32,000 nt of DNA from Nonlabens ponticola (lineage in GTDB: Bacteria > Bacteroidota > Bacteroidia > Flavobacteriales > Flavobacteriaceae): NCBI RefSeq assembly GCF_003966335.1, contig NZ_CP034549.1, positions 2,520,001 to 2,552,000 of the forward strand. The letters are read 5' to 3'. A model generated the notes under the pieces. It saw only the letters and a list, made by a program, of their open reading frames with translations, searched no databases and was not told the origin of the DNA. Of the stretch, positions 4,347-32,000 are shown piece after piece. Position 1 is the first letter of the stretch, and every line of letters begins with the position of its first letter. The position numbers and the translations under genes are program-made.

Positions 4347-4363
4347 GTGCAACGGAAGTGCAA
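4347..4363 (-). promoter_or_regulatory. Direct repeat TTGCAC-N5-TTGCAC (minus-strand reading); candidate operator overlapping a -33 region
   Basis: The plus strand reads GTGCAAcggaaGTGCAA. The site lies in the 57-nt gap between the Fur-like stop and the STAS start. It is 12 nt upstream of a near-consensus -7 box (minus strand TACTTTG, 4328-4334). The same motif occurs at 11557-11573. Confidence 0.45.
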
Positions 4364-6651: not shown

Positions 6652-9600
6652 TTAGTTTTGGAAATATTGTAGTTCAAACAAGGCTTTTAAATAATTATCG
6701 AGTGCATCTAGCGCATCCATTTCAGTCTGGATGGCATCCCTGATGATTTGTGTGAATGCCGCATAGTCCAGCGCTCCTTCTTTATATGCCAGCAACGCAC
6801 CCTTTCGCTGGTCTATGGCAAGCGGCAGCGCTTCGGTTTTATAGAAAAACCAAGTGTCCCGCCATCGCACATAATTTTGCATCGCTTGTGTATATTGAGA
6901 TTGTAACTCACGCTGTTTATAGGCTGCATCGGTTTCTGCAATCTGTGTATCCAGTTTTGCAGCTTTTGCGCGGCTGCGGTCTGGGCCAGAAAACAGCGGA
7001 ACGGTAATACCCACTTGATAGGTGTAGAAACCGCTATCGCCATTTACTCGTTGCAGACCACCTTGCAGATTGAACTTGGGCAATAGATTTACCCTTGCTG
7101 CATCATAGCTTGCCTGTGCTTCGTCTATACGCTTTCGCGAAAGCGATAATTCGGGATGATCATTCAATATTTCAACTGTCTCTGAAATCGAAATTTCATC
7201 AGCTTCCAATTCATCAGTAACGGTGTACATCGTATCTGGTGTCAACCATAGGTTGAGTTTTTGAAGAGCGATCAAATAGTCTGTTTCTGCCTGTTGAAAT
7301 TTATTATTGACCCGCAAAGCTTGATTGCGCGCAGCATCATATTCCAGCCTTGAAATGGCTTCCACTTCATAATTGAGTTCTACAGATTGTGCAAACTGAT
7401 TGTAAATACTGTCCAATTCTCGGTACAAGAGGAACTTCTTTTTTGCCTGAAAACCTTCTGACCAGGCTTTTTTAACTTCCCGTTCTACCAGGATTTTAGA
7501 AAGGTCAAATGCCGTTTGTGCCAACTCGATCCGTTGTTGTTGTAAACGTTCCTTGGCACCTATTCCCAGTAGATCAATATTCTGCTGTCCGATGCCTATC
7601 AAGGTATAAATGCCCTGACCATTGGCTACTTCCTCACCACCAGTAAATACCTGTGTATTTCCGAAATCATAAGCATTGCCTGTGAGTGCATTCTGTCTTT
7701 CAATTTCGAGTTGGCTCGTTTTAAGTACAGGGTAATTCTCTTTGGCAATTTCAACCGCTCGTGATAGTGTGATGGGTATGATACTGTCCTGAACAATACT
7801 ATCCTGCAAAGGTGCTTGTGATTGTTTCGCTTTTTCTTCGACTGCTCTCTGGGCAGATGCCCAAGAGGTACCACCTAACATAAAACCAAGTATCAAAATT
7901 GTAGTCAACGCTTGCGTATTAAACGAACCAATCTTTTTCTGGTCTTTGCGCTCGCGTCTCTTTTCTATAAACGTATAGAGCACGGGAAGAACGACCAACG
8001 TGAGTAGCGTCGCTGTAAGCATACCACCGATAACCACTGTAGCTAGTGGTTGCTGCACCTCTGCACCAGCAGATGTGGAAAACGCCATAGGTAAAAAGCC
8101 AAAGATATCTGTAGTAGCCGTGAGCATAATGGGACGAATACGTTCTTTAGTCCCTTTAAATATTCTATCCTTTATACTTACGACACCTTCTTCTTTTAAA
8201 GAATTGAATCGGTTAATAAGTACCAGCCCGTTGAGAACTGCGACACCGAATAGCACAATAAATCCTACACCCGCCGAAATACTAAAAGGCATATCTCTCA
8301 ACCATAAGGCAAACACACCACCGATGGCCGCCAAGGGTATCGCGATGTAAATCATTAAAGATTGTGAAAAGGATTTTAGAGCAAAGTACAGCAGTATGAA
8401 TATTAAAAACAGAGCGATAGGCACAACGATTATCAAACGATCCTTTGCACTTTGCAGATTCTCAAATTCGCCACCATAGGTAATATAATAGCCCGATGGC
8501 AGATCCAGTTCTTCATCTAATCTTTTCTGAATGTCTTTTACTACAGATTCCACATCCCTTCCTCGAGCATTTACACCTACATAGGTTCTTCTATACGTAT
8601 TATCACGTGAGATTTGCATAGGTCCAGGCACGTATTCAATCTCGGCTATTTCGATAATGGGCACCTGATTTCCATCCTTAAGATCGATATACATATTGCG
8701 CAGGTCATCAATACTTTTTCTATGGCTTTCATCAAATCGTACCACGAGGTCAAATCGTTTCTCGCCCTCAAAAATGACACCAGCCGTACCACCTGCAAAT
8801 GCAGTACTTATGTAATCATTGACTTTTTGAATATCCAGTCCATATTGCGCCATTTTATCTCGCCTAAATTTTACGGTCATCTGTGGTAATCCAGCTGTAC
8901 GTTCTGCACTCACATCGCCAGCACCAGGAACAGTCTGTATAATAGCTGCCATTTCCTGAACCTTTTTTGACAATACCTCTAAATCTTCGCCATAAAGCTT
9001 TACCGCAATGTCTTCTCTCACACCTTCTAAAAGCTCGTTAAACCGCAGCTCTACAGGTTGAGTAAATACTAAATTCACACCCACGAGTTCTTCATTCAAT
9101 TTATCTCTAATGGCATCTATCAAACCTTCTTTAGTAGAGGCGGTTGTCCAGTCATCCATATCCTTATTAAGGATGATGTACATATCTGCAATGTCCATAG
9201 GCATAGGATCTGTAGGAATATCTGCTACACCTATACGCGCTGTGACTGTTTTAATTTCAGGGAAATTATCTAATAGAATGTTTTCTATTTTTTTGGAAAC
9301 TTCAATGGATTCTGACAGCGAACTTCCTGGTCTTATGAGGGCCTGCATTGCTAAATCTCCTTCATCGAGCTGCGGCACAAATTCTCCACCCATATTAGAA
9401 AAGATAAAACCTGCGATGACAAGTAAAACTGCCGCGGCTGATAGAACGATTAGTTTTAGCTTTAGTGCTCCCTCTAACAATGGCATATATGCACTATGAA
9501 CAGCACCTATTATTTTATCACTTAATTTTTCGAGCCAGCACTCAAACCTACTGAACCAGTTTTTGGTGTTTTGTACTGGTTTCATAAAAAGCGCAGACAT

Positions 9601-11097
9601 CATAGGCACATAAGTAAGACAAAGAATAATGGCACCTATCATTGCAAACCCAAAAGTGTATGCCATAGGTTTGAACATTTTACCTTCTACACCTGTAAGA
9701 AAAAGTATGGGTGTAAAAACGATGAGAATGATGATTTGTCCAAAAAAAGCAGAACCCATCATTGTGCTTCCCGCTTCATAGGCTACTTTATCCATTAGGT
9801 CTTGATTGAATTTTAACTTGCCAGACCTAATTCGTTTTTGGATCTCATACACCGTTCCTTCTATAATAATCACTGCACCATCTATGATGATTCCAAAATC
9901 AATAGCTCCCAAACTCATTAAGTTTGCCCATACATTAAACTGCTTCATCAGGATAAAGGCAAAAAGTAAAGACAGTGGTATGGTCGTGGCTGTTATGATT
10001 CCGCCTCTTAAACTACCCAGCAATAAAACAAGGGCAAAAATCACAATCAAGGCACCTTCTAGTAAATTGGTTTTAACCGTATCTGTAGTTCGCGCAATTA
10101 GCTCGCTACGATCAATTATTGGGACAATGCTAAGTCCTTCTGGCAGGGATTTTTCAATTTCTGCCATACGATTCTTCACATTTTGAATGACTGCATTAGG
10201 ATTAGAACCCTTGAGCATCATTATAATACCACCAACAGCTTCCTTACCGTCCTGTGTAAATGCGCCATAACGCACTTGATTCCCAAAATGGACACGCGTT
10301 GCCACATCTCCAATAGTTATAGGAATATTACCTTCATTAGTAATCGAGATATTCTTAATGTCCTCCAAAGAGCGAATTAGACCTTCGCCTCTTATGAAAT
10401 TTGACATTTTATTTTTTTCTATATAGGCGCCACCAGTATTGACATTGTTCATAGCAAGAGACTCATAAACTTGTGAAATGCTGATGCCCATACTGTTTAA
10501 CTTTTCTGGATCTAGAGCAACCTCGTATTGTTTAATACTACCGCCATAAGAGTTAACTTCTACCACACCTTCCAGCAAAGTAAGTTGTCTTTTGATAACC
10601 CAATCCTGCACGGTGCGCAGTTCCATAGGCGAATACTTGGTTTCAAAACCTTCTTCTGGTTTTATGGTGTATTCATAAATTTGACCTAAACCTGTGGAAA
10701 TAGGACCCATAGACGGACTCCCAAATTTTTCAGGAATGGATTCGCCCAATTCATTAAGTTTTTCCCCTACCAGCTGTCGAGGAAGATAAGTCTCCATATC
10801 GTCTTCAAAAACGATGGTTACTACAGAGAGTCCAAAACGTGAGATAGATCGTATTTCGGTAACGCCTGGCAAATTACCCATAGATAATTCTACTGGATAG
10901 GTTACAAACTGCTCGATATCTTCCGTTCCCAGATTCGGCGATTGTGTGAGGACCTGTACCTGGTTATTGGTAATATCTGGCACGGATCCAAGATTTACTG
11001 TTGCCATCGACCAGATACCGACTCCTATAAGAGTTAAGGTAAAAAAGCCAATAATAAATTTATTATTGATTGAAAAATCAATGATTTTATTAATCAT
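6652..11097 (-). CDS. czcA: CzcA-family heavy-metal RND pump fused in frame to a TolC/CzcC-like outer-membrane-factor domain
   Basis: 1481-aa uninterrupted ORF. The first ~1040 aa are typical CzcA/CusA (12-TM layout; GAIDFGIIIDGAVIIIE; ATVVIGGMLTATLLTLVVLPVLY). Next comes RERKDQKK plus a hydrophobic stretch ending WASA-Q. The remaining ~430 aa are coiled-coil-rich TolC-like sequence. Confidence 0.9.
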   Translation of the reverse strand: MINKIIDFSINNKFIIGFFTLTLIGVGIWSMATVNLGSVPDITNNQVQVLTQSPNLGTEDIEQFVTYPVELSMGNLPGVTEIRSISRFGLSVVTIVFEDDMETYLPRQLVGEKLNELGESIPEKFGSPSMGPISTGLGQIYEYTIKPEEGFETKYSPMELRTVQDWVIKRQLTLLEGVVEVNSYGGSIKQYEVALDPEKLNSMGISISQVYESLAMNNVNTGGAYIEKNKMSNFIRGEGLIRSLEDIKNISITNEGNIPITIGDVATRVHFGNQVRYGAFTQDGKEAVGGIIMMLKGSNPNAVIQNVKNRMAEIEKSLPEGLSIVPIIDRSELIARTTDTVKTNLLEGALIVIFALVLLLGSLRGGIITATTIPLSLLFAFILMKQFNVWANLMSLGAIDFGIIIDGAVIIIEGTVYEIQKRIRSGKLKFNQDLMDKVAYEAGSTMMGSAFFGQIIILIVFTPILFLTGVEGKMFKPMAYTFGFAMIGAIILCLTYVPMMSALFMKPVQNTKNWFSRFECWLEKLSDKIIGAVHSAYMPLLEGALKLKLIVLSAAAVLLVIAGFIFSNMGGEFVPQLDEGDLAMQALIRPGSSLSESIEVSKKIENILLDNFPEIKTVTARIGVADIPTDPMPMDIADMYIILNKDMDDWTTASTKEGLIDAIRDKLNEELVGVNLVFTQPVELRFNELLEGVREDIAVKLYGEDLEVLSKKVQEMAAIIQTVPGAGDVSAERTAGLPQMTVKFRRDKMAQYGLDIQKVNDYISTAFAGGTAGVIFEGEKRFDLVVRFDESHRKSIDDLRNMYIDLKDGNQVPIIEIAEIEYVPGPMQISRDNTYRRTYVGVNARGRDVESVVKDIQKRLDEELDLPSGYYITYGGEFENLQSAKDRLIIVVPIALFLIFILLYFALKSFSQSLMIYIAIPLAAIGGVFALWLRDMPFSISAGVGFIVLFGVAVLNGLVLINRFNSLKEEGVVSIKDRIFKGTKERIRPIMLTATTDIFGFLPMAFSTSAGAEVQQPLATVVIGGMLTATLLTLVVLPVLYTFIEKRRERKDQKKIGSFNTQALTTILILGFMLGGTSWASAQRAVEEKAKQSQAPLQDSIVQDSIIPITLSRAVEIAKENYPVLKTSQLEIERQNALTGNAYDFGNTQVFTGGEEVANGQGIYTLIGIGQQNIDLLGIGAKERLQQQRIELAQTAFDLSKILVEREVKKAWSEGFQAKKKFLLYRELDSIYNQFAQSVELNYEVEAISRLEYDAARNQALRVNNKFQQAETDYLIALQKLNLWLTPDTMYTVTDELEADEISISETVEILNDHPELSLSRKRIDEAQASYDAARVNLLPKFNLQGGLQRVNGDSGFYTYQVGITVPLFSGPDRSRAKAAKLDTQIAETDAAYKQRELQSQYTQAMQNYVRWRDTWFFYKTEALPLAIDQRKGALLAYKEGALDYAAFTQIIRDAIQTEMDALDALDNYLKALFELQYFQN
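7130..7145. repeat. Iterated palindrome copy 3 (16-bp perfect CGCTTTCGCGAAAGCG)
   Basis: Read directly. It lies inside the TolC-like part of the fusion, encoding L-S-R-K-R (third reading frame of the palindrome). Confidence 0.97.
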
Positions 11098-11134
11098 TTA
11101 ATTGTGTTATTAATTCAGTTAATATATGGGTGTA

Positions 11135-11150
11135 CGCTTTCGCAAAAGCG
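11135..11150. repeat. Iterated palindrome, degenerate copy (CGCTTTCGCaAAAGCG, one mismatch at 11144)
   Basis: Read directly. This is the only copy in non-coding DNA, in the 118-nt gap between the small Cys-rich gene and czcA. Confidence 0.85.
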
Positions 11151-11185
11151 AAAACAAATAATATCTCCCGAAGGGAAACATCACG

Positions 11186-11205
11186 ACAGGATATAGCTAT
11201 CCTGT
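11186..11205 (-). other. Hairpin (8-bp stem ACAGGATA/TATCCTGT, 4-nt loop) in the intercistronic leader of czcA
   Basis: Read directly. There is no downstream U-tract on the minus strand, so it is not a canonical terminator. A small TCCC/GGGA hairpin (11166-11176) and the degenerate palindrome lie in the same spacer. Confidence 0.35.
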
Positions 11206-11215
11206 AAAAACTGAG

Positions 11216-11533
11216 TTATGCCCGTGGTGGTTGTAATAGGGAAAGGGAAATATCCTTGCCTATACTGTCAAAATAAACCGTAGAAAGTTTATAGTCTGCT
11301 GGATGGTAAAGGTCTAATACATTTAATCCAAAATCTAACGTGTGAACGTGACAGCAATGACAATGACAAAAAGGAGAACACATATCAAGTAGATTGTGGT
11401 AGTAATCACCAGTGTCGCTTTGTGAAAATTCTATTTGCGTGCTATCCTCAAAAGAGTCAACATTTGCATCACTGCAAGGCGCAAAATTAAGCGCGAGCAG
11501 ATAGAATGAGAATATGACCGTAATAATTTTCAC
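11216..11533 (-). CDS. Small secreted Cys/His-rich protein (CSPFCHCHCCH motif; resembles what I recall as the Bacteroidota DUF6660 family)
   Basis: 105 aa with an N-terminal signal-like segment MKIITVIFSFYLLALNFAPCSD and the motif MCSPFCHCHCCHVH. GTG start at 11533. It is the first gene of the czc-like operon. Confidence 0.55.
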   Translation of the reverse strand: MKIITVIFSFYLLALNFAPCSDANVDSFEDSTQIEFSQSDTGDYYHNLLDMCSPFCHCHCCHVHTLDFGLNVLDLYHPADYKLSTVYFDSIGKDISLSLLQPPRA

Positions 11534-11537
11534 AAAA

Positions 11538-11545
11538 CAAAGATA
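11538..11545 (-). promoter_or_regulatory. Candidate Bacteroidota -7 box TATCTTTG (TAnnTTTG)
   Basis: Exact match to TAnnTTTG on the minus strand, only 4 nt upstream of the GTG start and 11 nt downstream of the TTGCAC repeat. This implies a very short or absent leader. Confidence 0.3.
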
Positions 11546-11556
11546 CCCTAATTCTA

Positions 11557-11573
11557 GTGCAACTGGTGTGCAA
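11557..11573 (-). promoter_or_regulatory. Direct repeat TTGCAC-N5-TTGCAC (minus-strand reading); candidate operator overlapping a -33 region
   Basis: The plus strand reads GTGCAActggtGTGCAA. The site lies in the 54-nt gap upstream of the czc-like operon. Half-sites and spacing are identical to 4347-4363. Confidence 0.45.
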
Positions 11574-11587
11574 AGGTTTTATTCAAA

Positions 11588-13192
11588 TTATTTACGAATA
11601 AATTTAGATGGCTCTGAAAAATCTTTTACTATATCTAGAATCTGATTTATAGGTTCTGGGACACTATCGATATTTATACGTTGGGCAATGGTTCGTGCAA
11701 AGAGTACTTTATTATAAGTCGCTTTTTTCTTTTGATATAAAATTCTACTGATATTTGACAGGAAGTCGTTATTACGGTCAAAATCTGTAATCAAAATCTT
11801 AGGTTCCTCTGGATATAAATAGTTTAAAATTTCCACAGAATACTTAATATCAAATAAGTCTTCAAATGTTCCATTTTCTATAAAGATCATTCTATATTTA
11901 TTCTGTTCATTCTGTATGACGCGATTAATATCATCTCTTTCTTTAGTTGCATCGGAATCTAAAAAGCACACCATTTTTCGTTTAGGGTATTTGCTTCGGA
12001 AATTAAAAAAGTCTTCTTTCAATTTTTGCTTTGACTTTGAATTATAGACTTGTATCTCATTATGTGATAATACGAACCGTTTTCTGAAAGCTAATATTGG
12101 AATAGCAACCTCTTCGCTTTCCCCTTCAACTAAAATGATAACTTTTGGATTATTAACAATATTGAGGTTTGGTAAAAAGTTTCCAAATCTATCTGCCATT
12201 GATTTTTTAAAATCTTCAAAAAACTCTTTAAAGTAAACTAAACCTATTTTTTCAGCTATGGCTGTATTTTCTAGTAACAGCTTATATTGAAGTAATTCTT
12301 CTGGCAAAATAATAGTTTGTTTTTCACCACAACAAGGACAAATCATATCATCTTCAAGCTCATCTTTTCTGGAATGCGCTTTTACTCTGATATTTTTAAA
12401 CTCTTCTGCAAATTGTTTAAGTTCAGGATTCGCAGAAAACCCTTTCAAACCGTATTTTTTAAATACTTCGTGATCTATTTGGAAATACGAGTAGTGAAGA
12501 GCTTCACTCATACCTATTTTGGGCATTTCCACTTCTGCAATGGTTGTGAACCCTACACCTAATTCTTTATGCTCTTTATTTATTTTTTCAACATAACGTC
12601 TATAAAAAAGAGTTAATTCCTGTAATGGTGGAAAATTCATTAATCTAAAAAGTAGCTCTAATTTTTCTTTGTTAGTTGACGGTAGCGTAGATTGACTCAA
12701 TCTTTTTTCTAAGTGGCCATCGAGATTCATATTTTTTAAGCCTAAATCTTCAACAACCTTAGAAAAATTATGTTCTATGTCATTATCATCAAGTTTAGCA
12801 AGATCCATATGGTACTTTAATTCAACGTCCTCAAAATGCTCTTTTGTAAGTTTACAGATTGTTAGAGTATATGGTGTTGCTTCTATAATCCAATTGAATT
12901 CATAATCAATTCCTGGCAAGTACTTTTCATAAAGAATCTCAAGAGTTGGTTTCCAAATATTCTTAAATATGAAAAACTTGTCTAAAGCCACTAAAACTTC
13001 ATCTGCATTTTGATTTTCCTCTTCACCACCTTTATTAACATTAACGAGTAATCTAATGACATTGTTTAAAATTGTATCGTGTCCAAAGACAGCAATTCTA
13101 TTTAAAGAACCTTTGATGATTCCCATATAACCACCTTCTACGATTTTTCTCCAATCGTTATCTCTATTCTCAGTTTCAACTTCTTTACCCAT
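11588..13192 (-). CDS. Hypothetical protein with a C-terminal OLD-type TOPRIM nuclease-like domain and no recognisable ATPase
   Basis: The TOPRIM Glu motif VIILVEGESEE is at about 12106-12145, and the DxD motif CFLDSDATKE is at about 11945-11975. The ~340-aa N-terminal region has no Walker A motif. There is a single CPCCGEK motif. Start is ATG 13192 (or GTG 13195), overlapping the upstream stop as TGATG. The gene is markedly AT-rich. Confidence 0.6.
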   Translation of the reverse strand: MGKEVETENRDNDWRKIVEGGYMGIIKGSLNRIAVFGHDTILNNVIRLLVNVNKGGEEENQNADEVLVALDKFFIFKNIWKPTLEILYEKYLPGIDYEFNWIIEATPYTLTICKLTKEHFEDVELKYHMDLAKLDDNDIEHNFSKVVEDLGLKNMNLDGHLEKRLSQSTLPSTNKEKLELLFRLMNFPPLQELTLFYRRYVEKINKEHKELGVGFTTIAEVEMPKIGMSEALHYSYFQIDHEVFKKYGLKGFSANPELKQFAEEFKNIRVKAHSRKDELEDDMICPCCGEKQTIILPEELLQYKLLLENTAIAEKIGLVYFKEFFEDFKKSMADRFGNFLPNLNIVNNPKVIILVEGESEEVAIPILAFRKRFVLSHNEIQVYNSKSKQKLKEDFFNFRSKYPKRKMVCFLDSDATKERDDINRVIQNEQNKYRMIFIENGTFEDLFDIKYSVEILNYLYPEEPKILITDFDRNNDFLSNISRILYQKKKATYNKVLFARTIAQRINIDSVPEPINQILDIVKDFSEPSKFIRK

Positions 13193-14934
13193 CACTTTAT
13201 CTCATCTATTGTGCTCCCGCAAGTTAACATTTGCTCACCATAGTATGGATTTTTGATATCCTTCTCGACACTTAGCCAGACCGCGCCTTTATTATTATTT
13301 GCCATCGGGCATTTCTGAACATATAGTATCTCTTCGGTTGCATTTATATTCATCGCGATGGGCACCATATTTTCATTTAATATCACAAAATGGTCACGTT
13401 GATTATCCAGATTATCGTTCGCTGCAATGGCATCTAGCATTTCAATACTTTTCTTGATATGTGATTGTTCCATACTACCGAGACTTTTAATATCTGCGGA
13501 TTTTAAAGATGTTGATGTCGCTTTCGCGAAAGCAGAAACCTGATTTGCATCGCTCGCTACCAAAGCATCTTTCATCTGCAAATAAGGCTTAAGCGCTTTC
13601 TTAAATTCACTTTGAAAATTTTCTGTAAATTCCATTTTCATTTGAGACATAGGCATCTCAGATGCCTCTTCCTTTCCCTGATTCATCATAGATTTTTTGC
13701 CTTGTAGCTGGGCTGCTGCGTCTACTGTAAAAGTTCCGTTTGTCACAATCTCGTCGCCAGTTTGTAGGCCCTCTGTTACAGCATAATTTTCACCATTACG
13801 ATTTCCAATGGTTACTTCACGCATTTCAAAAACGGGTTCGTTGGGACTGGTTTTTATATAGACCAATGAGCGTTCGCCAGTCCACATTACGGCACTTGCA
13901 GGAACTGTTATCACTTCGTTAGTCATCATCATTTCCCCTTCGAGTTTTCCCGTTACAAACATTCCTGGTTTAAAGAGGTTGTCTGTATTTTTTAGTGTTG
14001 CTCTAACGGTAACCGTTCGCGTGGCATTGTTAAGTATGGGGTCAATAAACGAAACCGTAGCACCAAATTCTTTATTGGCATAAGCATTGGTTACTACTTT
14101 TATTTTCTGACCTACTTTTAAATCTGAAATTTGATTTTCATAGGCATCAAATTCTGCCCAAACTGAATTTAAATTGCTTACTTTTAAAATGGGCTGACCT
14201 TGTTTTACATAGTCGCCTTCACGTGCCATCACTTCTGAAACCGTTCCTGAAACGGTGGCATAAATGGGGAAATTATCTCGCACTTTTCCTGAAGTTTCAA
14301 TCGCATTAATTTGGCCTTCTGAAAGTTTCCATAATTTCAATTTGTTGCGCACTGCCTTGTATAGTTCAGGCTGCGATTCTTTTAATGAAGCTGTTGTGAG
14401 CAATTCTTGCTGTGCAGCGACCAAATTTGGTGCATAAATGGTGGCCAGTAATTGACCACGATTTACTTTTTGGCCTTCATAATTAACATTCAAACGCTCG
14501 ATACGCCCATCAAAATGGCTTGCTTGTACAGCATTGTTTTCTTCGTTGGTGGCGATTTTGCCAGAAAGCGTAATCATTCCATCATCTTCTGACATACTGC
14601 TATTACCTACAATAGTAGTTTGAATGTTTGCCAGTGCCATTGCATTTTCTGTCATTTTAATTTCATTAACTGCAAGACCATCTGCACCAGATTCAGCAGG
14701 TATCAAGTCCATTCCACATATAGGGCAGTCGCCTGGTTCGGGCTGCATAATCTGTGGGTGCATTGAGCAGGTCCACATTTGGTTTGGCGACTCGCCAGAA
14801 TGGTCGTGGGTATCTGACATTTCAGAAACGTCCTTGTTTGCCTTGGCATCACTACCTGAACTACCAAAAATGAGCCATCCACCTAGTAGTCCCACGATTA
14901 GTGCAAGTGCTATATATAAAATGTTCTTGTTCAT
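13192..14934 (-). CDS. CusB-like RND periplasmic adaptor with an N-terminal HMBD metal-binding module and a C-terminal DUF3347 domain
   Basis: WTCSMHPQIMQPEPGDCPICGMDLIP is at about 14700-14780. An adaptor core follows (ATVSGTVSEV...GDYVKQGQPI). The C-terminus KCPMANNNKGAVWLSVEKDIKNPYYGEQMLTCG parallels the standalone DUF3347 gene at 20275-20865. Confidence 0.85.
   Translation of the reverse strand: MNKNILYIALALIVGLLGGWLIFGSSGSDAKANKDVSEMSDTHDHSGESPNQMWTCSMHPQIMQPEPGDCPICGMDLIPAESGADGLAVNEIKMTENAMALANIQTTIVGNSSMSEDDGMITLSGKIATNEENNAVQASHFDGRIERLNVNYEGQKVNRGQLLATIYAPNLVAAQQELLTTASLKESQPELYKAVRNKLKLWKLSEGQINAIETSGKVRDNFPIYATVSGTVSEVMAREGDYVKQGQPILKVSNLNSVWAEFDAYENQISDLKVGQKIKVVTNAYANKEFGATVSFIDPILNNATRTVTVRATLKNTDNLFKPGMFVTGKLEGEMMMTNEVITVPASAVMWTGERSLVYIKTSPNEPVFEMREVTIGNRNGENYAVTEGLQTGDEIVTNGTFTVDAAAQLQGKKSMMNQGKEEASEMPMSQMKMEFTENFQSEFKKALKPYLQMKDALVASDANQVSAFAKATSTSLKSADIKSLGSMEQSHIKKSIEMLDAIAANDNLDNQRDHFVILNENMVPIAMNINATEEILYVQKCPMANNNKGAVWLSVEKDIKNPYYGEQMLTCGSTIDEIK
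13520..13533. repeat. Iterated palindrome copy 4 (14-bp perfect core GCTTTCGCGAAAGC)
   Basis: Read directly. It lies inside the CusB-like CDS, encoding S-A-F-A-K-A-T. Confidence 0.95.
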
Positions 14935-29036: not shown

Positions 29037-29456
29037 TCAAATTAAGAATGTCTGGTGCAATACCTGTAAATCCTGCCTTATAAAAGGTGGCTGGTGATTT
29101 GCAAAGGAAACTTCTGTGGATTGAGTTCCTTGAAATAAATTGATGTATGTGTAAGTAAATGAGGCGACAAATATTTGTTGCTCGTAAGAAAGTTGGGTGA
29201 AATTTTGTTTGAGGTCATCTTGGCCTTCGATGATAATTTGTTGATCTGAGCAACAAGATTTCTCAGACAGCATTGGATTCTCACAACTTTTAGCTGGTTG
29301 GGCATTCTCCATTCCGCAGGTTTTTAACTGCTGCACAAATGAATAATCAACAAGTGTCTCTCCGCAAAAATGCATTTCAACAGCAAACGACATCGTAGTC
29401 ATAAGGACTACGGCTGCCATAAAAAGCGCCATTGATTTGTTGAAGAGTGATTTCAT
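29037..29456 (-). CDS. Small secreted Cys-rich protein resembling the HYC_CC_PP family
   Basis: Signal-like MKSLFNKSMALFMAAVVLMTTMSFA. Motifs in the expected order: MHFCGE (H-aromatic-C), KSCCSDQ (CC) and HQPPF (PP). Start is taken at ATG 29456, because the ORF-track start at 29465 is TTG. Confidence 0.6.
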   Translation of the reverse strand: MKSLFNKSMALFMAAVVLMTTMSFAVEMHFCGETLVDYSFVQQLKTCGMENAQPAKSCENPMLSEKSCCSDQQIIIEGQDDLKQNFTQLSYEQQIFVASFTYTYINLFQGTQSTEVSFANHQPPFIRQDLQVLHQTFLI

Positions 29457-29462
29457 TTGATA

Positions 29463-29470
29463 CAAAAATA
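29463..29470 (-). promoter_or_regulatory. Candidate Bacteroidota -7 box TATTTTTG (TAnnTTTG)
   Basis: Exact TAnnTTTG match on the minus strand, 6 nt upstream of ATG 29456. The geometry matches the box at 11538-11545. Confidence 0.3.
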
Positions 29471-29784: not shown

Positions 29785-30516
29785 TTAGGTATCGGTATGA
29801 GATTGAAAGGATATAGGTTTGTGTGGATCTTTTGGTATTGAGATGGACTGTTTAGTTTGTTTTAAAACCTGATGAATCATTAATATTCCAAACATCCATA
29901 TAAGACCAGTTTGAAGCTCTTGATAGCCGATAAGATCTTCAATCTGGTTTTCTTCAGTTAGGTCTATATGTGTTATGAGTTTCTTAATCTTTTTAGGACT
30001 AATCAAGTTGGGCTGATAGCCTTCTTTTCCCAAAGCCATTTTAAACTCTTCGGCGGTTCGTTCATAATTCTTGTTGTGAAGTACTTCCGAGAGCATTTCT
30101 TTTTTCGCTGCTTGCATTCGGCCCCATTTTCCTTCTCCTTGCCAGTACTCTAAAATTTTATAGGTTTCTAAAAGTGTGAAACTTCTACGTCCCACCAAAT
30201 CATTTTCAATGAAGTATGTAGAGAAGCGTTCATTGAAAGTAGTACGCGAATGAAGTCCGGTAATCTGGTAGAGCATTTTTTTAGGAATACGCTCTGGAAA
30301 TAAGGGTTGGAAACCAGCAATTATTTGCTCGTTTTTAATTTCTTCGGAAGGAGTTTCCCATAAGTCAATAATCGAACTATAATGAGAAATGTAGATCATA
30401 AAACGCCTGAACGATTTAAAATTATAGCTTATCAAACAAGCTGCAATAAACCACCAAGGTACGCTACCATTGTACCTTTCGTGAAATCTATCTATTTTAA
30501 AATCTTCTTCTGTCAT
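29785..30516 (-). CDS. Hypothetical protein (possible HTH segment plus one C-terminal hydrophobic helix)
   Basis: 243-aa ORF with ATG at 30516. The segment KKMLYQITGLHSRTTFNERF looks HTH-like, and LIWMFGILMIHQVL is hydrophobic. I recognise no family. AT-rich. Confidence 0.5.
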   Translation of the reverse strand: MTEEDFKIDRFHERYNGSVPWWFIAACLISYNFKSFRRFMIYISHYSSIIDLWETPSEEIKNEQIIAGFQPLFPERIPKKMLYQITGLHSRTTFNERFSTYFIENDLVGRRSFTLLETYKILEYWQGEGKWGRMQAAKKEMLSEVLHNKNYERTAEEFKMALGKEGYQPNLISPKKIKKLITHIDLTEENQIEDLIGYQELQTGLIWMFGILMIHQVLKQTKQSISIPKDPHKPISFQSHTDT

Positions 30517-30776: not shown

Positions 30777-31937
30777 TTATGCTATTTCCTTTAAAAAATA
30801 ATCTCTCAAAATTTCCTTAAATTTTGGAGAGTTTATACCATTCGCTTTCTCCAATATTTTCTGTTTATTAAAATATTCGATACCATACTTTTTCGTTTTG
30901 ACCTTAGCGTTTGCAAGTTTTTTTTCGGCGGCTTCTGTAAAACCACCAGTACTCCAGATCTCAAACGTGAGTGATTTTTCTGGATAAACATTCATAGCCC
31001 ATTTTCTTATAATCACAATTTTATTAGAAATATAGTCCTCGATATAATCTATATCAACTGGGTAATTATAGCCTTTACATTCAACGATTTTTACTTCATT
31101 TTCAAAAACTGCCAATACATCTATTTCCTTTGATTGGTTGGTTTCTTGTAATGTCACTCTTTTGCTTATATCTAAATTACGGCAATACTTACTATAGTAA
31201 TATCCAACAGCAAGTTCAAAAAGATCTCCTCTTAAATTGTTGGTTTTTCCATCTACTAGTTTGGTCAATTTCTCCATCAAATTGATGTATTGTTCTGGAT
31301 CTTTTTTTAGAATAGCTCCAGCATTAGTTACTATATTGATTAGAGATTTTAATAATTCACTATATTCATTTCCAAACAGTTCCCTTATGGAAGCTATCAG
31401 CACACCATTACTTTTTAGCTTATTAAGAGCCTTGGTCTTTATACCATCAACAATTATCACAGGAAAAAGATCTAGAACTGGATTTGAAGCTTTTATAGCT
31501 GCTATTTTTCTTAGAAAGAAACTAACCGTTTCTTCATTGGTATCATTACCTAACAAAATGTCTGCAATTAAAAAGCCTGGGTTTTTGACATTACCCTTGT
31601 ATCTGGTTAGTCCATCAATATATGTTGGTGCCGAAAATGCAAATTGAAAACCACCAACAACATTATTATTTTTACCCTTTTTAAAGGATGTCAAGCCTAT
31701 GTTTTTACTCCATATTTCAAATCTCTGTAAAACAATAGCTTTAGAAAGTTCAATTGCTTTTATATGACTTAAATTAGGATTATGTTTTCCACCAAGCAGC
31801 GCATTTAAGCCTAAAGTTTCGTCATCATATTTTCTAACAAAATCATTTTTCAAGAGAAGCTCAATAAGAGTGTCAAATTTCATATGACCATCAATGCGAC
31901 TTATTGGACTTATAGAATAATTTGCTAATTCCTTCAT
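30777..31937 (-). CDS. Hypothetical protein with a C-terminal Mrr/NERD-like PD-(D/E)xK nuclease motif
   Basis: GDLFELAVGYYYSK ... EIDVLAVFENEVKIVECKG (about 31070-31130) fits the D...E-x-K restriction-endonuclease-fold signature. The ~230-aa N-terminal region is unrecognised. AT-rich. Confidence 0.6.
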   Translation of the reverse strand: MKELANYSISPISRIDGHMKFDTLIELLLKNDFVRKYDDETLGLNALLGGKHNPNLSHIKAIELSKAIVLQRFEIWSKNIGLTSFKKGKNNNVVGGFQFAFSAPTYIDGLTRYKGNVKNPGFLIADILLGNDTNEETVSFFLRKIAAIKASNPVLDLFPVIIVDGIKTKALNKLKSNGVLIASIRELFGNEYSELLKSLINIVTNAGAILKKDPEQYINLMEKLTKLVDGKTNNLRGDLFELAVGYYYSKYCRNLDISKRVTLQETNQSKEIDVLAVFENEVKIVECKGYNYPVDIDYIEDYISNKIVIIRKWAMNVYPEKSLTFEIWSTGGFTEAAEKKLANAKVKTKKYGIEYFNKQKILEKANGINSPKFKEILRDYFLKEIA

Positions 31938-32000
31938 ATTTACAAGCCCGTGATGAAATTTTATCGCCGTGATTATAGCACCTATTCTTTTAGCATCAGA

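Follow-up and report, generated by a model that had tools for sequence, protein, structure and literature searches.

The window considered here is a stretch of 32,000 nucleotides (nt) of the Nonlabens ponticola genome (GCF_003966335.1, NZ_CP034549.1:2,520,001-2,552,000, forward strand), and its subject is a single gene on the reverse strand (-), at 11588..13195, that encodes a protein with TOPRIM signatures: VIILVEGESEE at residues 351-361 and FLDSDA at residues 410-415. The open reading frame (ORF) gives 535 aa if read from a GTG and 534 aa if read from the ATG at 13192. The ATG (MGKE...) is conserved among relatives and the GTG is not, so the real product is the 534-aa protein, whose gene spans 11588..13192 (-), with 534 codons and a TAA stop (11588-11590), as supported by translation, homologues and the ratio of nonsynonymous to synonymous substitution rates (dN/dS). 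At its start, which reads ...AAG TGA TG GGT..., the GTG/ATG overlaps the TGA of the upstream CusB-like gene (13192..14934); the same position reads TAATG in one relative (L016), while in two others (L020 and L021) the start is TAAGTATG, with a gap of 2 nt after the CusB-like stop. The GC content of the gene is 0.305, against 0.396 in its 8-kb flanks and 0.407 as the genome mean. The repeated element TTGCAC-N5-TTGCAC occurs at just two sites in the window, both intergenic (4347-4363 and 11557-11573), and nowhere inside the gene. The original prediction, drawn from the letters of the window, had described a 534/535-aa ORF with TOPRIM signatures, a start overlapping the CusB-like stop, AT-richness relative to the neighbours, an absence of the iterated palindromes and a position between a copper and a zinc module. 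These features are borne out by base-level reading, by composition, by the Pfam assignments of the neighbours and by key motif residues that are invariant in 69 homologues, and all eight statements of that first observation are confirmed.

The C-terminal part of the protein carries the recognizable function. A full-length AlphaFold2 model built from 69 family members (predicted local distance difference test score, pLDDT, 89; predicted template-modelling score, pTM, 0.76) lays the chain out as helices (residues 1-275), a beta-hairpin (280-295), three helices (298-344), an alpha/beta TOPRIM core (351-437) and a helical tail (443-526). The assignment of the region to an OLD-type TOPRIM, which a search without any TOPRIM fold among its matches would have undone, agrees with Foldseek: the sole significant matches in the PDB are the C-terminal regions of class 2 OLD proteins from Xanthomonas (6NJW/6NJV/6NJX) and Burkholderia (6NK8), with probability 1.00, a target template-modelling (TM) score of 0.64-0.68 and ~205 aligned columns, so that the helical domain is included. 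The TOPRIM core (residues 346-440; 11873..12157, -), delimited by Pfam PF20469, by the 6NJW and 6NK8 matches and by an hhalign alignment to a GajA-like protein, contains E356 and E360 (VEGESEE), N384 and K388 (NSKSKQKL), and D412, D414 and E418 (LDSDAxKE). The OLD-type helical domain (residues 441-534; 11591..11872, -), delimited by invariant columns, the published catalytic set and the fold match, contains G-T442-F-E444-D and K495. Across the 69 homologues E356, G357, E360, D412 and D414 are invariant, as are E444 and K495, and T442 is conserved. The catalytic set of Burkholderia OLD (BpOLD) comprises E400, E404, D455, D457, T506, E508 and K562 (PMC6755086), and E356, E360, D412, D414, T442-x-E444 and K495 follow it in order and nearly in spacing; by this measure T442 and E444 would correspond to the metal-B T-x-E motif formed by T506 and E508, and K495 to K562. 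Residues ~346-534 (~190 residues) thus appear, on the predicted structure, to form a complete OLD-type two-domain catalytic region, TOPRIM plus helical, in which all seven presumed counterparts of the class 2 OLD two-metal cleavage positions are invariant or nearly so in the family.

Sequence-based searches add little to this picture. A precomputed PF20469 (OLD-like_TOPRIM) match is present in 15 of the 80 homologues, and distant relatives score 25-58 bits. With hhalign, only the TOPRIM Glu motif (VEGxSEE) of the GajA-like protein encoded in the same genome could be aligned, at a probability (57.6) that is too weak on its own. Nothing relevant was found in PDB sequences with either the whole-family profile or the C-terminal 199 aa, nor anything meaningful in NCBIfam. 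A search of viral folds in BFVD gave no significant match, and the only viral similarities, including the one in PHROGs, are weak and primase-like.

What precedes the catalytic region is unlike any known OLD protein. Residues 1-275 (12368..13192, -) are modelled as a helical domain with no known fold and no family match (AlphaFold2 pLDDT 89 and 85), with Y88, P93, E104, C113, FRLMNFPPL (182-190) and H241 as its conserved features. They are followed by a beta-hairpin and three linker helices (residues 276-345; 12158..12367, -), defined by conservation and by the model; the hairpin strands (280-284 and 291-295) flank a near-invariant ICPCCG (C285, C287, C288 and G289), hereafter the CPCC hairpin. 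Its similarity to zinc-ribbon proteins in a PDB sequence search is weak, and it is possible, judging from conservation, that C113, H241, C285, C287 and C288 form a zinc knuckle or site. The original prediction had called about 340 N-terminal residues unrecognised, and this description stands: neither Pfam, NCBIfam, PADLOC and PHROGs nor the sequences and folds of the PDB contain a match to residues 1-345 (~345 aa). When modelled alone from 23 locus-derived sequences they nonetheless form a confident domain (pLDDT 85, pTM 0.82), for which the best Foldseek match in the PDB has an E value of 0.48, a probability of 0.08 and TM scores of <=0.17. The N-terminal domain therefore appears to be a fold without a solved relative. 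A profile of this domain recovers the same family only and never a protein in which it is joined to another C terminus, and the N-terminal-only matches in an exhaustive phmmer search are short fragments. The predicted lack of a Walker A/ABC ATPase segment likewise stands: no Pfam ATPase matches the protein of the window, the N terminus is helical in a confident model, and just 3 of 69 members have a Walker A-like string, which lies at the very C terminus.

There are 80 full-length homologues, of 517-539 aa. An exhaustive phmmer search over 1.84 billion protein representatives returned 37 at E<1e-30, and its remoter matches cover residues ~310-525 only, being PF20469 proteins with other N termini, including an AAA_15+TOPRIM protein. 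A scan of 185,579 genomes (one per species) by pattern and tblastn found 25 family loci in four phyla. Most hosts named there are Bacteroidota (several Flavobacteriaceae, Chryseobacterium, Bacteroidales, Hymenobacter, Cyclobacteriaceae, Pedobacter, Roseivirgaceae and Chitinophagales); the others are Sulfuricurvum (Campylobacterota), Ideonella and a metagenome-assembled genome (MAG) of Pseudomonadota, and Cohnella and Desulfosporosinus (Bacillota). Further copies in the protein collection come from Pseudomonas and Yersinia ruckeri, two Hymenobacter plasmids carry the gene beside rep/par, Fic, IS3 and integrase genes, and no family match was found in a phage genome collection. In 25 of 26 loci the GC content of the gene falls below that of its flanks, with the largest difference (-0.27) in Ideonella and differences of 0.15-0.21 in other high-GC hosts, and the Sulfuricurvum copy nests among Bacteroidota sequences in the tree. 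The family is rare, patchy, AT-rich and horizontally mobile, in keeping with the foreign origin that had been proposed for the gene of the window. Two apparent fusions, probably gene-call or assembly artefacts, were set aside: P0029 (912 aa), with a TOPRIM match only, and P0066 (821 aa, on a 5.4-kb metagenome contig), in which the C-terminal part of a type I R subunit (SWI2_SNF2, T1R_D3-like) is joined to about half of the present TOPRIM protein (70% identity over 49% of it), whether through a merged gene call or because the gene truly adjoins a type I restriction-modification (RM) system.

In the window, the gene sits inside a metal-resistance island in which all neighbouring genes run on the same strand. 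The copper module lies upstream (CusA, OEP, AraC, a multicopper oxidase, DUF3347, Haem_bd, an ArsP-type permease, CopA, DUF305 and the CusB-like protein) and a Zn/Cd/Co module downstream (DUF6660, a CzcA-OEP fusion, CzcB, CDF, Fur, a SpoIIAA-like protein and a P-type ATPase). The last original gene of the copper operon encodes the CusB-like membrane-fusion protein (13192..14934, -; HMBD, HlyD_D23 and DUF3347 in Pfam), and the first gene of the czc operon encodes DUF6660, a small Cys/His-rich protein (11216..11533, -; Pfam, 98.6 bits). As an observation on the downstream module, the CzcA-OEP product (window 6652-11097) is a 1481-aa fusion of a resistance-nodulation-division (RND) pump (ACR_tran) and OEP that is conserved in the Aquimarina, Nonlabens and Hymenobacter islands.

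Comparison with relatives resolves the insertion of the TOPRIM gene to the base. Among 301 genomes sampled from the same family, 190 carry the CusB-like gene, nearly all of them without the TOPRIM gene, and at the 29 best-matching CusB-like loci the TOPRIM gene occurs only in the genome of the window. In many of these 29 loci the site is empty, with ~50 nt between the CusB-like stop and the DUF6660 and CzcA genes that come next, and the proposed capture of the gene into a metal-resistance unit is thereby supported. One empty site (L049) reads ...ATCAAATAA|AAACCTTTGCAATCCAGTTGCA...TATCTTTG...GTG, and these flanks recur in the window, where the ORF and ~9-12 nt are inserted at the bar. The left junction is the GTGATG at 13190..13195 (-), where the TGA stop (13194-13192) overlaps the ATG (13192-13190), which leaves no space for an insert-borne promoter. 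At the right junction (11575..11590, -), the TAA and ~9-12 nt (TTTGAATAA) end the insert, and the conserved flank AAACCTTTGCA, as placed by aligning filled with empty sites, begins again at ~11579. The spacer in front of DUF6660 and czcA (11534..11579, -) pre-existed and lies outside the insert, and its TTGCAC-N5-TTGCAC (11557-11573) and TATCTTTG are found in empty and filled sites. This element is conserved as TTGCAn-N5-6-TTGCA followed by TAnnTTTG at empty and filled sites of several genera, and TTGCAC-N5-TTGCAC with TAnnTTTG is probably the czc operator/promoter. The insert contains no repeats, no insertion sequence (IS) and no upstream sequence, and leaves the czc operator/promoter intact downstream. 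Thus, by these alignments, the copy in the window appears to be a ~1.6-kb insertion of a bare ORF between the CusB-like stop and the czc promoter/operator, and any promoter for it has to be sought in the copper operon, because the ORF came without sequence from upstream. No terminator-like hairpin was found between the CusB-like, TOPRIM and DUF6660 genes, and a scan for sigma-70 promoters and terminators gave counts at shuffle level with a tool that does not cover Bacteroidota promoters.

The same filled site is present in Aquimarina (three genomes), Nonlabens and two Flavobacteriaceae MAGs. The seven island copies form one clade (support 97/94), which is sister to a copy from Mariniflexile carried by an integrative and conjugative element (ICE) (100/100), and this topology indicates that the island copy was acquired once, from an ICE-type lineage. 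The divergence of the island copies tracks that of the adjacent CusB-like gene. Against island relatives, dN/dS is 0.09-0.26 for the TOPRIM gene, in both domains, and 0.09-0.13 for the CusB-like gene, which means that the TOPRIM gene has been maintained under purifying selection. The island itself is a mosaic (window 6652-13195 compared with L017 and L020): the CusB-like, TOPRIM and DUF6660 genes are 89-95% identical to those of Aquimarina, whereas CzcA-OEP shares 91% identity with Nonlabens but 63% with Aquimarina, a shift that places a recombination breakpoint between DUF6660 and czcA. A Hymenobacter MAG (L078:4287-5840) carries a copy of 50% identity (GC content 0.47, against 0.645 in its flanks) as an independent insertion into a homologous metal island (DUF305, a MerA-like gene, CDF, P-ATPase, Fur, CzcB and CzcA-OEP). 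There it occupies another position and lies on the opposite strand, and it groups with non-metal Hymenobacter copies.

The metal island borders a defence island. A tRNA-Ser(tga) gene (L073:18197-18282; C1:2518197-2518282) lies ~1.7 kb before the start of the window, and directly after the window begins a low-GC (0.31-0.36) defence island (L071:8177-11374, L071:15674-18545 and L072:2380-17259). It encodes a 1066-aa MmeI/Eco57I-type enzyme, two tyrosine integrases, an SNF2 helicase, DUF4391, GmrSD, an N6_N4 methylase, ResIII+RE_endonuc (type III-like RM), a 580-aa SMC_N-like protein and a resolvase; an MFS sugar transporter marks its end. In the same low-GC block, just beyond the high end of the window, a Gabija-like pair (L071:2261-6086; C1:2552258-2556086) consists of a 605-aa AAA_15/AAA_21 protein with OLD-like_TOPRIM (57.9 bits) followed by a 672-aa UvrD helicase; a classical class 2 OLD system thus stands ~19 kb from the ATPase-less one in the same genome. 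The metal and defence islands together look like one acquired region of ~70 kb, and it is plausible that the tRNA-Ser gene was the integration site of the whole block. A CTnDOT-type ICE was also considered for this genome and rejected: there is no TraJ and there are no homologues of the ICE genes at two ICE-borne loci (L001 and L004); what is present instead is the tRNA-Ser-linked block with its integrases and resolvase. Separately, four ORFs at the island edges (421-1815, 29037-29465, 29785-30516 and 30777-32000, the last continuing to a 486-aa ORF) have no Pfam match at E<=1e-4 to 1e-2.

Elsewhere, homologues of the gene reside in defence islands, CTnDOT-type ICEs and plasmids. In Pseudomonas viridiflava the order is IS66, TIR-SIR2 and the TOPRIM gene. 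On a Bacteroidales metagenome contig, SIR2-HerA, a type I-like R subunit, a methylase and AlwI precede the gene, and DUF4365, two integrases and an MmeI-type enzyme follow it. In Roseivirgaceae it lies between a C5 methylase with a Pycsar cyclase and PycTM on one side and a 1691-aa Eco57I-like protein on the other, and in Chitinophagales SSB/DUF932 genes stand on one side and pEK499_p136 and AbiEii on the other. The Sphingobacterium copy stands between a PRTRC/ThiF cluster and TraQ-TraO-TraM-TraJ, and that of Mariniflexile is preceded by ISL3 and followed by a 382-aa gene, SSB, DUF6876 and a type IV coupling protein (T4CP). This 382-aa gene, directly downstream of the ICE-borne copy (L022:11674-12819), has no Pfam match and no counterpart beside other members. 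Among the ±3 neighbours at 18 diverse loci, the leading defence families are SIR2, AbiEii/AbiEi, AbiH, Eco57I-type, AlwI, C5 methylase, HerA, PDC-S11, NsnB and RmrA, and the leading mobility families are integrase, SSB, TraM/TraN, ArdC and ISL3. The suggestion that the gene is a defence candidate thus gains guilt by association from the neighbourhood survey, in which homologues adjoin SIR2-HerA, Pycsar, RM, AbiE and TIR-SIR2 systems. In addition, clustering of all neighbours in 26 loci gave no conserved partner gene, in line with the orphan status originally assigned to it.

From these neighbourhoods and from the roles of OLD-type nucleases, the reading that we somewhat favour is a single-gene defence nuclease, or a nuclease of conflicts between mobile elements, from the OLD lineage, in which the ATPase was replaced by the ~345-residue helical CPCC domain. 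The N-terminal domain would hold the nuclease inactive and sense a cue from the invader, either a protein or a nucleic acid, thereby taking the regulatory role that the ATPase has in OLD, Gabija and PARIS. Once activated, the TOPRIM site would nick or degrade DNA, or tRNA by analogy with PARIS AriB, and the cleavage would abort the infection or invasion. In the window, the promoterless gene would be expressed as the last cistron of the copper operon by read-through from the CusB-like gene, at a level that rises with copper. A bolder extension, which we put forward tentatively and would sooner doubt than accept, is that the family represents a sixth, ATPase-independent branch of OLD-type immunity, with a Cys/His helical fold (possibly zinc-binding) as sensor and gate, carried by ICEs and plasmids as a self-contained defence of one gene and wired to the copper operon in the metal islands of Flavobacteriaceae, where metal stress would induce a defence nuclease.

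Several observations weigh against a defensive role or against the OLD assignment on which it builds. The protein of the window scores 21.2 bits with PF20469 (residues 352-393), just under the cut-off of 23.2 bits, so that its TOPRIM assignment rests on the fold match and on relatives above the cut-off, and the residue correspondence with BpOLD comes from order and spacing. No model of PADLOC-DB 2.0.0 matches significantly, the best being mad4 (E 0.016, 14 bits). The association with defence islands comes from an appraisal of about 20 loci rather than from a formal enrichment statistic, and some contexts are not obviously defensive, such as the uninformative one in Yersinia ruckeri, near type III secretion system and two-component genes. 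Several ICE copies adjoin SSB, DUF932, PRTRC and ArdC genes, which fits a role in the service of the element, or in anti-defence, equally well, and the two independent insertions into metal islands (the clade of the window and the L078 copy) leave room for a metal-linked role.

These last two points correspond to the alternatives that deserve most attention. The nuclease may serve its mobile element, through anti-defence, entry exclusion, elimination of competitors or addiction/maintenance, in which case the metal-island copy would be cargo left over from near the early-entering region. The gene indeed adjoins SSB, DUF932, DUF6876, PRTRC/ThiF, T4CP or Tra genes in Mariniflexile, Sphingobacterium, Pedobacter and Chitinophagales, ArdC-type anti-restriction domains are among its neighbours, the plasmid copies lie by rep/par, Fic, IS3 and integrase genes, and the island clade has an ICE copy as its sister. 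However, several copies stand between bona fide chromosomal defence systems with no conjugation genes within 8-10 kb, the genome of the window has no CTnDOT tra genes and yet keeps the TOPRIM gene under purifying selection, and those known OLD-type TOPRIM proteins whose phenotype has been tested act as defence effectors (PMC10568477), all of which makes this explanation an unlikely one, if a serious competitor. One may also argue that the gene was co-opted by the metal island as a copper-induced, metal-dependent nuclease, possibly sensing metal through its CPCC and Cys/His residues and acting on metal-damaged nucleic acids or in regulation of the island. That the gene closes the copper operon and lacks its own promoter fits this idea, as do a slot kept in at least three genera with dN/dS similar to that of the CusB-like gene, the second independent insertion into the homologous Hymenobacter island, and the conservation of C113, H241, C285, C287 and C288. 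Nevertheless, 28 of 29 close island relatives do without the gene and keep the CusB-like/DUF6660 junction intact, which means that the island works without it; most family members are found in non-metal contexts, where the same Cys/His set is conserved and is thus structural to the family rather than an adaptation to the island; and metal islands are common cargo of ICEs and plasmids, which would explain the co-occurrence. We therefore regard metal co-option as a minority reading and as distinctly improbable.

Two further explanations can be given still less credence. A functionless passenger, that is, a decaying remnant of an old insertion, would account for a promoterless copy of atypical composition that is dispensable in relatives, but the frame is intact in all seven of the seven island copies, the catalytic residues are all retained, and dN/dS stays at 0.09-0.26 even at dS of ~1.2; this explanation is already contradicted by the selection analysis, and the odds of its being right are very slim. 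Least credible of all is a housekeeping TOPRIM enzyme of RNA processing similar to RNase M5. It is true that the Joint Genome Institute (JGI) annotates one homologue as '5S rRNA maturation endonuclease (ribonuclease M5)' and that RNase M5 has the active-site layout of OLD (PMC6755086), but a housekeeping gene is hard to reconcile with 25 loci in ~185,000 species genomes, with absence from a genome of the same genus and from nearly all sampled genomes of the family, or with an AT-rich gene on mobile elements whose best fold match is OLD, and the distribution brings this reading close to refuted.

Bacterial immunity makes recurrent use of OLD-type nucleases as effectors (P2 Old, Gabija, retron Eco8, PARIS and MADS), and a 2023 review asks whether an OLD protein alone suffices for defence (PMC10568477). 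If the defence or conflict role is correct, the family would provide a second way to gate an OLD nuclease, in which the ATPase has been swapped for an unrelated domain while the full catalytic region is kept, and a compact candidate system of one gene, chiefly from Bacteroidota, whose defences are less explored. If the protein is inactive or not defensive, the finding reduces to an accessory gene of mobile elements. Independently of function, the base-precise empty and filled sites offer a clean natural case in which an existing operon gained a bare ORF at its end, and they predict copper-dependent expression of a nuclease.

How, then, does this family relate to known systems? An ABC ATPase is common to the published OLD classes 1-5, where it is present in cis or, in PARIS, encoded by an adjacent gene (PMC10568477, PMC12796447). 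The proteins described here share the C-terminal TOPRIM with its invariant Glu, Gly and DxD (E356, G357, D412 and D414 in 69 homologues) but have a helical N terminus without a Pfam ATPase or Walker A, and no conserved ATPase neighbour; the family resembles the catalytic half of an OLD nuclease without the ATPase by which OLD nucleases are defined. Like class 2 OLD and Gabija GajA (BpOLD 6NK8 and XccOLD 6NJW), it has a C-terminal TOPRIM and helical region with, judging by order and spacing, the pattern E, E+4, DxD, T-x-E and Lys; unlike them, it lacks the ABC ATPase, the dimerisation insert and an adjacent UvrD/GajB helicase, and its helical N terminus is unrelated, while sequence identity in the catalytic region is only 13-19%. 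Consistent with a separation from Gabija, the neighbours in the window are the CusB-like and DUF6660 genes, and no helicase partner was found in 26 loci. With class 1 OLD (P2 Old and Thermus scotoductus OLD 6P74), the family shares a single gene, no fixed partner and an OLD TOPRIM, whereas class 1 proteins carry their ATPase in cis and the Foldseek match to 6P74 is weak (E 0.29).

A closer parallel in the lack of an ATPase is provided by PARIS AriB (class 4 OLD), MADS MAD4 and AbiLii, OLD-related TOPRIM polypeptides which illustrate that an ATPase-free TOPRIM effector can work in defence. However, these effectors need an ATPase from an adjacent gene (AriA, MAD3 and AbiLi, respectively), are of ~300 aa or less and lack the present N-terminal domain. 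AriB in particular is a DUF4435-type protein of ~35 kDa accompanied by AriA, while here no DUF4435 match was found at E<=1, the protein has 534 aa and no AriA-like neighbour is conserved. RNase M5 and DnaG-type TOPRIM proteins resemble the family in their TOPRIM core and two-metal layout and differ in distribution, size and helical domain. As for class 3, the retron OLD proteins, no reverse transcriptase was seen at the loci tabulated one by one or among the top-ranking families listed for the ±3 neighbours, and non-coding RNAs were not searched. The reverse transcriptase-TOPRIM fusion of retron Eco2 (PMC12916289) likewise has a TOPRIM nuclease controlled in cis by a non-ATPase domain within one protein; there the partner is a reverse transcriptase with its msDNA, whereas here it would be a helical domain of new fold.

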